From: Naegleria gruberi
Taxonomy: Eukaryota
DNA length: 1,534 nucleotides
Reading direction: 5' to 3' (one strand)
Assembly: GCA_000004985.1 (NCBI GenBank)
Contig: GG739390.1
The translations under genes were made by a program, and so were the position numbers. Under the pieces are notes generated by a model. That model was not told where the DNA came from. It did not search any database and worked only from the letters and a program-made list of their open reading frames with translations. Numbering within the stretch: the first letter of the stretch is position 1; every line of letters starts with the position of its first letter. Below are positions 274 through 1,534 of this stretch, piece after piece.

Positions 274-420
274 TTTTTTTTGTAAAGTTTTTAAAAGATT
301 TGATTGGATATGAATGAGAATGAGATGATGAATAATATTATTGAGAAAATGGAGGAGATTTTAATGGAAATGGGATGGTTAGTTGTAAGAAAGTGGTAGA
401 AGGTCAGTATTTTCATAAAT
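274..420 (-). promoter_or_regulatory. Proximal promoter and 5' leader of the Arp gene: an A8 tract abutting the ATG, then a pyrimidine-rich (CT) sense-strand block
   Basis: On the minus (sense) strand the sequence directly 5' of the ATG is aaatcttttaaaaactttacaaaaaaaa-ATG. This is an A-rich leader of the kind seen in budding-yeast genes. Further upstream the sense strand is almost purely pyrimidine plus A (ctccattttctcaataatattattcatcatctcattctcattcat). Yeast core promoters typically have a T/pyrimidine-rich stretch upstream of an A-rich TSS and leader. No canonical TATAAA is present in this interval. Confidence 0.45.
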
Positions 421-746
421 TTCGAATTGGATTTGAATTCTGCCAAGTGCGCTTTCTCTAATGACGAGAAGGGATTGTTCATCGAGTGTCATTAAGGTTT
501 GATTGGTTGAATCTATGAATGATATGTTGGAAATAACACAATTCGTTGGGATGTTCCACTTTTCCTTAATTTTTTGTTTGAAAATTGACATTGACATGAG
601 CTCTTCTTTGGTAAACCCAAATAATCTTTGTTGGTTGTGAAAGTTTAGCTGGATGGGAATGATTTGAGGTCGATTCATTGGTGGTTGAGGCGTATGAATG
701 ATTGGATTCGGATAGGCCAGTTGTTGGTTTGGAATCATTGGACGAA

Positions 747-769
747 TATGGAAGATTGTCATAATTATG
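747..769. repeat. Left arm of a 23-24 nt inverted repeat (tatggaagattgtcataattatg) ending in the perfect palindrome cataattatg
   Basis: The reverse complement of 1271-1294 is tatgggaagattgtcataattacg. Against 747-769 this is 23/24 identity with one extra g and one t/c difference. 760-769 (cataattatg) is its own reverse complement. Confidence 0.85.
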
Positions 770-796
770 TGGGGGTGGGTGGGTCGTGAAAAAAGG
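770..796 (+). repeat. G-rich box A (tgggggtgggtgggtcgtgaaaaaagg), directly repeated at 1243-1270
   Basis: It shares the 10-mer tgggtgggtc (776-785 and 1248-1257) and 11/12 of g[g/t]tgggtgggtc with box B. The next part holds the same material in permuted order: gtga+A6+gg in A versus A5+gtga+ggg in B. The G tracts are G5, G3, G3 and GG. Confidence 0.75.
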
Positions 797-800
797 ATGT

Positions 801-814
801 CCATAATTACGTGG
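801..814. repeat. Third copy of the TAATTA-core motif (ccataattacgtgg)
   Basis: cataattacg at 803-812 is the exact reverse complement of cgtaattatg at 1271-1280 and differs by 1 nt from cataattatg at 760-769. Each copy is preceded by tgtc or gtcc. The copy lies 5 nt after G-box A. Confidence 0.7.
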
Positions 815-830
815 TCCAGAGTGGGTCAGA

Positions 831-872
831 AAGTAGAGCAGAGCAAAAAACAAAAATTGGCAAAAGTAGAGC
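831..872 (+). repeat. Direct 10-mer repeat aaagtagagc (831-840 and 863-872) flanking an A-rich spacer
   Basis: Seen directly in the sequence: agaaagtagagcagagcaaaaaacaaaaattggcaaaagtagagcc. Confidence 0.6.
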
Positions 873-1128
873 CGAAGGTTTATTAGCCAAGAGTGAGACA
901 GCGTTCAAAGTATCAATTATCACTTGGTCTTCTAGCAACAAGTAATTCGGGGTTCTTGATTTTTTGTGTACCAACAACTTTGGGCAGGCATTCATCTAGA
1001 TTGTTATGGTTGAATGTGCTATGGCTGATGTGGAAGGAAGCAAAGGGAGAACTCTCCTCCTGGTGGTACTGATGAAGGTTGGTAGTTAGCAGGGTGGTGA
1101 TGAAATCATGAGTAATTGTTGTTTGTTG

Positions 1129-1150
1129 TTTTTTTTTGTTGAATATATAA
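1129..1150. promoter_or_regulatory. Poly(dT) T9 tract (1129-1137) followed by a canonical TATA box TATATAA (1144-1150)
   Basis: The sequence is ttttttttt g tt gaa TATATAA cgg. TATATAA is the consensus yeast TATA element. An adjacent poly(dA:dT) tract is a classic nucleosome-excluding promoter element. Orientation cannot be determined from the sequence. The nearest known start codon (ARP6, 273) is about 870 bp away on the minus strand, so this may serve a divergent, upstream or non-coding transcript. Confidence 0.4.
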
Positions 1151-1242
1151 CGGTCAGAACATTCAACTTTCAGCGGTAACATGCTGGTAGTGTGAAAAAA
1201 CTCACATGTAGTGGCCAGGATTTGTTGGGACGATCTTACAGT

Positions 1243-1270
1243 GAGGTTGGGTGGGTCAAAAAGTGAGGGT
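1243..1270 (+). repeat. G-rich box B (gaggttgggtgggtcaaaaagtgagggt)
   Basis: This is a direct-orientation copy of box A. It lies immediately 5' of the right inverted-repeat arm, whereas box A lies immediately 3' of the left arm. So the G-box keeps plus orientation while the arm is inverted. Confidence 0.75.
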
Positions 1271-1294
1271 CGTAATTATGACAATCTTCCCATA
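1271..1294. repeat. Right arm of the inverted repeat (cgtaattatgacaatcttcccata)
   Basis: Its reverse complement matches 747-769 (see the left-arm feature). The arms are about 500 bp apart. No target-site duplication was seen in the flanks (gaa|tatgg on the left, ccata|aaaac on the right). Confidence 0.85.
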
Positions 1295-1295
1295 A

Positions 1296-1534
1296 AAACT
1301 ATCACCATTTGTCTCTAATCAATTTGTTACTCTTTTTATTATAATCTATGAAGAACAAATAACTTTGTAGTTGTTTTTTTTAAAAGGTGTTAGGGTTTTT
1401 CAGAATAATAAAAGAGGTTTTCTTGATGAATTAAAAAATGTGTTTGATGTGTTGGTATTTTTGTAATAACTATCAATAAGAAATTACATTTCAATTTATG
1501 AAATAAACTTTATTTCATATTATGGTTATTTACC
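1296..1534. other. ORF-free AT-rich spacer with AATAAA/TTTATT-type words and a T8 tract (1374-1381). Probably the 3' flank or terminator of a neighbouring gene, or distal promoter sequence.
   Basis: There are stops in all six frames every few codons. aataaa occurs at 1404-1409 and 1501-1506, and tttatt at 1326-1331 and 1511-1516. The G>C skew of the preceding kilobase ends at about 1280-1290, exactly at the right inverted-repeat arm. Confidence 0.3.

Follow-up and report, generated by a model that had tools for sequence, protein, structure and literature searches.

What is enclosed by two near-identical inverted repeats that lie about 500 bp apart beside a coding gene of Naegleria gruberi, and how can the G-rich boxes just inside them both point in the same direction? 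These questions arise from a stretch of 1534 nucleotides of the N. gruberi genome (assembly GCA_000004985.1, contig GG739390.1), here called the window, in which a preliminary description had recognized the inverted repeat and had taken the repeat module to be rearranged. We found that the repeat forms the two ends of a directional array with the layout X-(pal-G-A)n-pal-X', in which pal is a 10-nt palindromic core, G a G-rich box, A an A-rich run, and X and X' the outer parts of the two arms. Tentatively, we read the block at positions 749–1292 as a MITE-like (after miniature inverted-repeat transposable element), non-autonomous element bounded by terminal inverted repeats (TIRs), or as a relic of one. 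The observations behind this reading are the architecture of the repeats and its statistics, the TA dinucleotides flanking the block, the lack of any coding or RNA-family signal within it, a step in base composition at its right end, and a break in protein homology at its left end. The coordinates of all features are given in Table 1.

Table 1. Features of the 1534-nt window, with positions counted from its first letter
Feature	Positions	Strand	Sequence and remarks
Putative TIR-bounded unit	749–1292 (544 bp)	.	41% GC, G>C on + strand, without recognizable coding capacity
Left arm	747–769	.	TATGGAAGATTGTCATAATTATG; outer part X = TATGGAAGATTGT, then palindromic core 1 CATAATTATG (760–769)
G-box 1	770–785	+	TGGGGGTGGGTGGGTC; then A-run GTGAAAAAAGG (786–796)
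Palindromic core 2	802–811	.	CATAATTACG; third copy, 42 nt inside core 1
G-box 2	812–827	+	TGGTCCAGAGTGGGTC; then A-rich AGAAAGTAGAG
G-box 3	1242–1270	+	TGAGGTTGGGTGGGTC + A-run + GTGAGGGT; same direct register as G-boxes 1 and 2; runs into core 3
Right arm	1271–1294	.	palindromic core 3 CGTAATTATG (1271–1280), then X' = ACAATCTTCCCATA
AT-rich right flank	1295–1534	.	22% GC; intergenic-looking; minus-strand ATG at 1308–1306
Conserved coding block	382–747	-	C-terminal 122 residues of N. gruberi NAEGRDRAFT_48002 orthologue; stop codon 379–381
Divergent actin gene, first 91 codons	1–273	-	Pfam Actin 3.4e-16

Arms, palindromic cores and direct units

Both arms lie where they had been placed before, and the longest exact inverted match between them, reported by the repeat finder, is 18 nt (750–767 against 1273–1290, with 505 nt between). 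None of 500 first-order Markov shuffles contained an exact inverted repeat of at least 18 nt; the maximum was 16 nt and the mode 10–11 nt. As a control, the longest exact inverted repeat within 1.5 kb was 15 nt in 27.8 kb of Naegleria-type DNA (loci L058–L060). The reverse complement of the right arm (1271–1294) is TATGGGAAGATTGTCATAATTACG, and the arm-to-arm distance is 501 nt. When the full arms are aligned, 22 of the 24 columns are identical, the other two being a T/C mismatch and a one-base gap opposite an additional G; the pair is thus near-identical, as had been claimed, but at 22/24 rather than 23/24.

Each arm consists of two parts. In the left arm the inner part, the 10-nt CATAATTATG, is a perfect palindrome, and X' is the reverse complement of X plus one extra C. 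The palindromic nature of the inner part was overlooked in the preliminary description, as was a third core, at 802–811, with a G-box of its own. All three cores share the pattern CRTAATTAYG, which occurs three times in the window against an expectation of 0.01. The peptide NYDNLP is encoded in both arms; the idea that the arms are paralogous coding exons was dropped, as this is a trivial outcome of an inverted repeat.

The G-boxes repeat in one direction only. As described previously, TGGGTGGGTC is present on the + strand in both G-box 1 (776–785) and G-box 3 (1248–1257). Three copies of the shorter motif GTGGGTC are present, where 0.12 would be expected, and all of them are on the + strand. 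Cores 1 and 2 each precede, at an identical 10-nt offset, a G-box that ends in GTGGGTC and is followed by an A-rich run, and the two adjoining 42-nt units so formed, L1 (750–791) and L2 (792–833), are identical at 26 of 42 positions. Directly before core 2 stands a degenerate copy of X, AAAGGATGTC; in a hand comparison of the units this degenerate X plus core, 42 nt inside the left end, matches at 13 of 20 positions. Furthermore, the right module at 1240–1278 (G-box 3, A-run and core 3) aligns directly to 768–809 (G-box 1, A-run and core 2) with P=0.002, and the direct similarity of the left and right modules persists when the arms are left out (P=0.004). The inverted alignment of the same modules, with the arms again left out, yields just a 6-nt AACAAA match, whose score of 12 falls short of the mean for shuffles (about 15). 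When the interior was scanned with a profile made from the three units, no further copies came up, only the three source copies.

This layout answers the question about the orientation of the boxes. The inversion of the arms has only two sources, the reverse complementarity of X' to X and the palindromic nature of the core; since the last core of the array also serves as the inner half of the right arm, the G-boxes can be co-directional while the arms are inverted. The preliminary description had inferred that one G-box was inverted relative to its arm and had considered a reshuffled interior; the direct register of the modules, together with the palindromic core, makes such reshuffling needless.

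Other features of the G-boxes and of the interior were noted. A regular-expression scan for G-quadruplexes detected a two-tetrad motif in G-box 1 only and none in G-box 3; a canonical motif, in which short loops on one strand separate four stretches of three or more G, was not found in the G-boxes and was rejected. Just inside the left units (window 830–875), AAAGTAGAGC(A/C)GA is present twice, 33 nt apart, and positions 1116–1141 are occupied by a (TTGTTGT)n tract with about four copies.

Edges and contents of the block

TA stands immediately outside both arms of the 749–1292 unit, at 747–748 and 1293–1294, and no longer direct repeat is found there. By maximum likelihood the GC content, which falls from 41% to 22% at the right arm, changes at 1291, positions 1271–1316 being nearly as likely. 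The GC skew dips at 1251–1400 and is positive again further right, at 1351–1500. The excess of G over C does therefore drop at the right arm, together with the GC content, but it does not stop there as had been proposed.

The left edge of the block adjoins a gene that had been overlooked between the block and the actin gene further to the left. The single match for the minus-strand translations is the N. gruberi "predicted protein" NAEGRDRAFT_48002 (P0272, 437 aa), of which residues 316–437 match window positions 747–382, with 119 of 123 columns identical, a boundary His/Asn mismatch included. The homology begins at the Ile codon 747–745, where the left arm has its outer edge, and none of P0272 residues 1–314 is encoded in 748–1534. 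When positions 748–804 are read as an extension in the frame of this gene, their codon usage scores -0.72, compared with about 0 bits per codon in real exons. In-frame ATGs are present on the minus strand at 738, at 762 (inside the arm) and at 804 (inside core 2). The AlphaFold2 (AF2) model of the full 141-aa open reading frame (ORF) has a predicted local distance difference test (pLDDT) score of 51, with residues 1–42 disordered; disorder is thus predicted for the 748–804 extension as well. Its C-terminal ~99 residues (382–678, minus strand) are predicted to form a small beta-alpha-beta-beta-beta domain (AF2 pLDDT 63), for which Foldseek returned no significant match, ubiquitin-like RAWUL and PB1-type domains being among the weak ones, and Pfam nothing.

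The minus strand contains no AG dinucleotide in 650–922 (no CT on the + strand); in comparison with Markov shuffles, a run of this length, 274 nt, has P=0.003. It begins inside the conserved coding block, includes the left arm and the two left units, and ends shortly beyond the stop of an 89-aa ORF described below. The edge of the conserved block therefore lacks a canonical splice acceptor, and the ends of the block between the arms have no GT...AG intron borders on the minus strand, the right border reading TA|TGGG and not GT. Because the window has no acceptor at the arm edge, either the P0272 model is mis-joined or the two genomes differ structurally at residues 315/316. The Q/N/P-rich composition of P0272 is unbroken across 315/316, and this continuity suggests one real protein. 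The genome of another species, N. clarki RU30, has been published (PMC11702301).

The block itself is devoid of recognizable genes. Pfam searches of every stop-free segment of the unit gave only noise, and the same kind of search across the 1.5-kb window found no recombinase-like ORF; the inversion option of the preliminary description, taken as an invertible DNA switch, has no support, the host moreover being a eukaryote, and a bacterial-type invertible promoter was likewise dropped. With Rfam 15 at a permissive threshold, the best E-value was 0.2, all matches being far below the gathering scores and none at the arms. A tRNA scan found none, and a tandem-repeat finder nothing relevant. Between the arms lies an ATG-started minus-strand ORF of 89 aa (1182–913), with an AATAAA (879–884) 29 nt past its stop. 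It has no homologue in the protein collection or in viral contigs and no Pfam match, and its codon usage is uninformative, the likelihood model (4.5 kb of N. gruberi-type coding sequence) being too weak to decide. The frame-1 stretch 916–1275 is without a homologue, too. An 18-nt A/C-rich run, AAAAAAAACAACAAACAA (1119–1136, minus strand), is identical in L060 at 540–557, the leader just upstream of an N. gruberi-type actin ATG on a metagenome contig; the shared run may reflect common Naegleria leader composition or low complexity.

The preliminary description had also suggested a foldback structure and a fold of the region. The arms do pair with each other in the minimum-free-energy and centroid structures of both strands, and as an RNA duplex they reach -26 to -28 kcal/mol. 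The fold of the whole region, however, is no better than that of shuffles (z = -1.6 and -1.9). A foldback element was rejected on these grounds: only 24 nt pair, and the rest of the interior is without self-complementarity. The other half of that suggestion, a MITE-like insertion, is now the leading candidate.

Other copies of the arms were sought in the available collections. An 18-mer scan of viral contigs gave 9 matches and a 20-mer scan of metagenome contigs 48, all of them chance matches with unrelated flanks, located in genes of phages or gut bacteria, in the latter case at a gene start; beyond the arm sequence used for the scan, none is similar to the window. The arms and motifs are also absent from the 27.8 kb of Naegleria-type loci, in which 10 intergenic regions are included. 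In the literature we found nothing specific on Naegleria MITEs, introners or promoter motifs, or on the locus tag NAEGRDRAFT_48002.

A possible MITE-like element and the competing explanations

As we tentatively picture it, the arms would be the TIRs of a short, non-coding DNA element of the cut-and-paste type, approximately 544 bp long and flanked by TA, which adjoins the last conserved coding block of the NAEGRDRAFT_48002 orthologue and may be either an active-type copy or a relic. Each terminus would comprise an outer 12–13 nt (X or X') and the 10-nt palindromic core CRTAATTAYG, and inside the termini would lie the ~42-nt direct subterminal units, each composed of a core, a G-box ending in GTGGGTC and an A-run. 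Judging from this arrangement, a transposase would bind the core-containing ends and the subterminal repeats, and the element would have been mobile and inserted here. The empty site before insertion would read …GATAGTTTT-TA-TTCGTCC…. Since the reference protein is not continued in the right flank, the unit may be no more than a portion of some larger segment that was inserted or rearranged.

Several observations count for the MITE-like reading. The block has terminal inverted repeats and a small size without coding capacity, and 544 bp is typical of MITEs. Both of its ends coincide with boundaries, the right one with the change point in GC content at 1291 and the left one with the start of homology at 747–745; the poor codon usage of 748–804 and the rearranged gene order around the actin gene (see below) point the same way. 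Like known MITEs, including the TA-targeting, Tc1/mariner-derived Stowaway-like ones, it has TIRs of about 22 bp, a length of about 0.5 kb, no coding content, TA flanks, a position close to genes and discrete boundaries. Its termini, however, are not known to be of the type usual in Tc1/mariner or Stowaway elements. The degenerate repetition of X and core inside the left end recalls the pairs of outer and inner binding sites that some TIR elements carry. In Tc1-like elements of the inverted repeat/direct repeat (IR/DR) type (the Sleeping Beauty and Tc3 class), as at the left end here, a terminal site is accompanied by a degenerate same-orientation copy further inward, which in the present block lies 42 nt inside. 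The repeats of IR/DR elements are spaced at about 165 bp. The spacing in the block is much shorter, its right inner copy is wrongly oriented for such an element, and it contains no transposase.

The same block shows features that weigh against a mobile element. The unit matches the adjoining exon in both GC content and G>C skew (0.36–0.39), and this shared composition, together with the AG-free run that passes over the left edge, suggests native rather than foreign DNA. The TA flanks may equally be two more bases of the inverted repeat, because TA is self-complementary. The right flank (1295–1534) lacks the residues that precede Ile316 of P0272, which excludes a simple insertion of 544 bp into the coding sequence of the reference. 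Removal of 749–1294 (546 nt, or 3 x 182) does keep the frame and joins the ATG at 1308–1306 to the conserved block, giving MVIVF-IRPM…, but this reconstructed N-terminus differs from the …LPNNN-IRPM of P0272. The interior is neither AT-rich nor self-folding, in which it differs from MITEs, and the subterminal repeats are directional rather than mirrored, the right inner unit being direct and not inverted, unlike textbook subterminal binding sites. Finally, no second copy of the unit turned up in the viral and metagenome arm scans, the Naegleria genomes lying outside the DNA-searchable set.

Many of these points are accommodated by a different explanation, which we consider a real though somewhat less likely possibility: a native, non-mobile array of ~42-nt direct units, located upstream or 5' of small minus-strand genes, to which an inverted copy X' has been added. 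According to this explanation, the 13–14 nt of X' were copied from beside core 1 by one replication template switch, primed by the palindromic cores, or by a small inverted duplication. The units may be promoter or transcription-factor sites, in line with the cis-regulatory option of the preliminary description, or may be neutral, and the candidate genes are the 119–127-aa ORF starting from the ATG at 738 or 762 and possibly the 89-aa ORF. The direct-unit architecture is statistically significant, and a local copying event accounts for the facts that only about 24 nt are inverted and that the inverted part has its inner limit at a palindrome. Arms that are 92% alike, against 62–80% for the units, fit a recent local copy, and composition and the AG-free run are continuous with the adjoining exon. 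With no AG acceptor at the exon edge, and with in-frame ATGs at 738, 762 and 804, the conserved block could be a first exon that has its promoter here. The modules lie at most about 110 nt upstream of both ORFs, gene spacing in Naegleria being ~100–150 bp, and the 89-aa ORF is followed by the AATAAA noted above. As in template-switch (quasi-palindrome) mutations, the inverted segment is short, is situated beside a palindrome able to prime, and is far more similar than the surrounding repeats. Most described template-switch events, however, span less than about 500 nt, whereas donor and copy in the block are about 500 nt apart, and an 18-nt exact inverted copy at that distance is a rare event. 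A native array leaves as coincidence that the arm edges meet the boundaries of composition and homology, and its motifs are absent from the related Naegleria DNA, intergenic regions included. Moreover, the Q/N/P-rich start of the conserved block looks less like an N-terminus than like a mid-protein stretch, which it is in P0272 (437 aa), and the 89-aa ORF is without a homologue.

The missing N-terminal part of P0272 raises another explanation, namely that 747/748 is the junction of a larger insertion or rearrangement interrupting the NAEGRDRAFT_48002 orthologue, with the right arm as an internal copy of a terminus. The block could then belong, for example, to the last ~0.8 kb at one end of a bigger mobile element, or be the outcome of ectopic recombination between element copies. 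The end of the P0272 homology at 747, the absence of its first 314 residues from the rest of the window, the lack of a splice acceptor at the 747 edge and the broken synteny with other Naegleria are all as expected. We nevertheless hold such a junction to be unlikely: no outer terminus is present before the window stops at 1534, the AT-rich 1295–1534 resembles ordinary intergenic DNA, and in P0272 the prediction may itself have joined a gene model wrongly. Slightly more doubtful still is a functional RNA stem in a minus-strand transcript, in which a long-range stem of 22 bp would loop out about 500 nt carrying some eight upstream AUGs. The stem could close a long leader that ribosomes bypass in a shunt-like geometry, or act as a zipper shortening a long intron. 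In favor of it, the arms pair in the predicted structures and form a stable duplex, a 10-codon upstream ORF (uORF) from the AUG at 1308 ends inside the 5' arm while the AUG at 738 lies 8 nt past the 3' arm, C-rich boxes border the stem just inside on both sides in the sense strand, and the AG-free zone is significant. In this geometry it is comparable to the closing stems of pararetrovirus leader shunts and to the zippers of long yeast introns, in that a stable stem would unite two sites, here 500 nt apart, with a uORF before and a start codon after; in contrast to these, splice signals at suitable distances are missing from the block. Conservation of the arms is of the identity type, without G-U pairs, as a recent duplication would also give, and the unexceptional overall fold, the absence of any Rfam family match and of canonical splice sites at or near the arms, and the shortness of the Naegleria leaders and introns examined here (e.g. 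a 58-nt intron) likewise speak against a stem. It is most improbable that the TA-flanked, stem-closed 546-nt segment is an intron-like mobile insertion, that is, an introner or a nonconventional intron in the style of the euglenids, which, like Naegleria, belong to the Discoba. Equally improbable is the event that this would entail: removal from the minus strand without GT-AG borders, a 22-bp stem juxtaposing the ends, and joining of the ATG at 1308 (MVIVF) to IRPM…. A dinucleotide direct repeat and base-pairing at the borders, and a removal that keeps the frame, are compatible with euglenid-type nonconventional introns or with an introner, as a resemblance. Without GT-AG borders the segment is no canonical intron or introner, and its reconstructed N-terminus is MVIVF in place of the …PNNN of the reference. 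Two further ideas were dropped, those of a telomerase-RNA template or Rap1-like sites, the organism not being a yeast, and of a ciliate genetic code, the organism being Naegleria.

The flanking actin gene and the meaning of the locus

The gene at the left end of the window had been taken for ARP6. It turns out that the 91-aa fragment matches conventional actins best, all 60 solved-structure matches listed being actins, and that an exhaustive HMMER search places its nearest relatives at 54–57% identity, the metagenome protein P0002 among them. A word-based protein search with the same fragment gave no candidates. Through P0002 we reached the full-length orthologue from Naegleria lovaniensis, C9374_014497 (P0153), which is 54–55% identical to the window actin and also matches actins best, not actin-related proteins (Arps). 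The flanking gene is a lineage-specific divergent Naegleria actin of the conventional type, about 40% identical to conventional actins, and not ARP6. No N. gruberi protein in the collection matches its N-terminus, and the gene may therefore be unannotated in the NEG-M reference.

The gene order around this actin differs between the window and its relatives. We compared the window with two loci, L058 (actin 6001–7234; upstream 4583–6000) and L059 (actin 6336–7505; upstream 5053–6335). In N. lovaniensis and on the metagenome contig, the actin paralogue is preceded, 100–150 bp away, by a divergent SRP54-type gene, which sits in a RasGAP-FKBP-SRP54-actin block. Only the actin gene of the window matches these loci; the upstream region is not conserved. 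The window contains no SRP54-type sequence, and the order therefore differs here, the place of the SRP54-type neighbor being taken by the NAEGRDRAFT_48002-like block in tandem orientation. From this difference we conclude that the region has been rearranged. The spacer between the stop of the conserved block and the actin ATG (274–381, 108 nt) has its own peculiarities. Its + strand is entirely without C (skew 1.0), a palindrome of 12 nt, AATAATATTATT (336–347), is perfect and precedes the actin ATG by about 65 nt, and some 20 nt past the upstream stop there is an ATTAAA.

The locus carries a methodological lesson, in that an ordinary architecture can give the impression of a rearrangement when a direct unit and a terminal repeat have a palindromic core in common. 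If the intron-like reading were true, nonconventional introns of the euglenid type would be extended to a second discoban lineage, the Heterolobosea. If, as we tentatively favor, the block is a MITE-like element, it would represent one more small transposon family in Naegleria; it would be useful for repeat annotation in this genus and would explain the difference at the NAEGRDRAFT_48002 locus between close strains.

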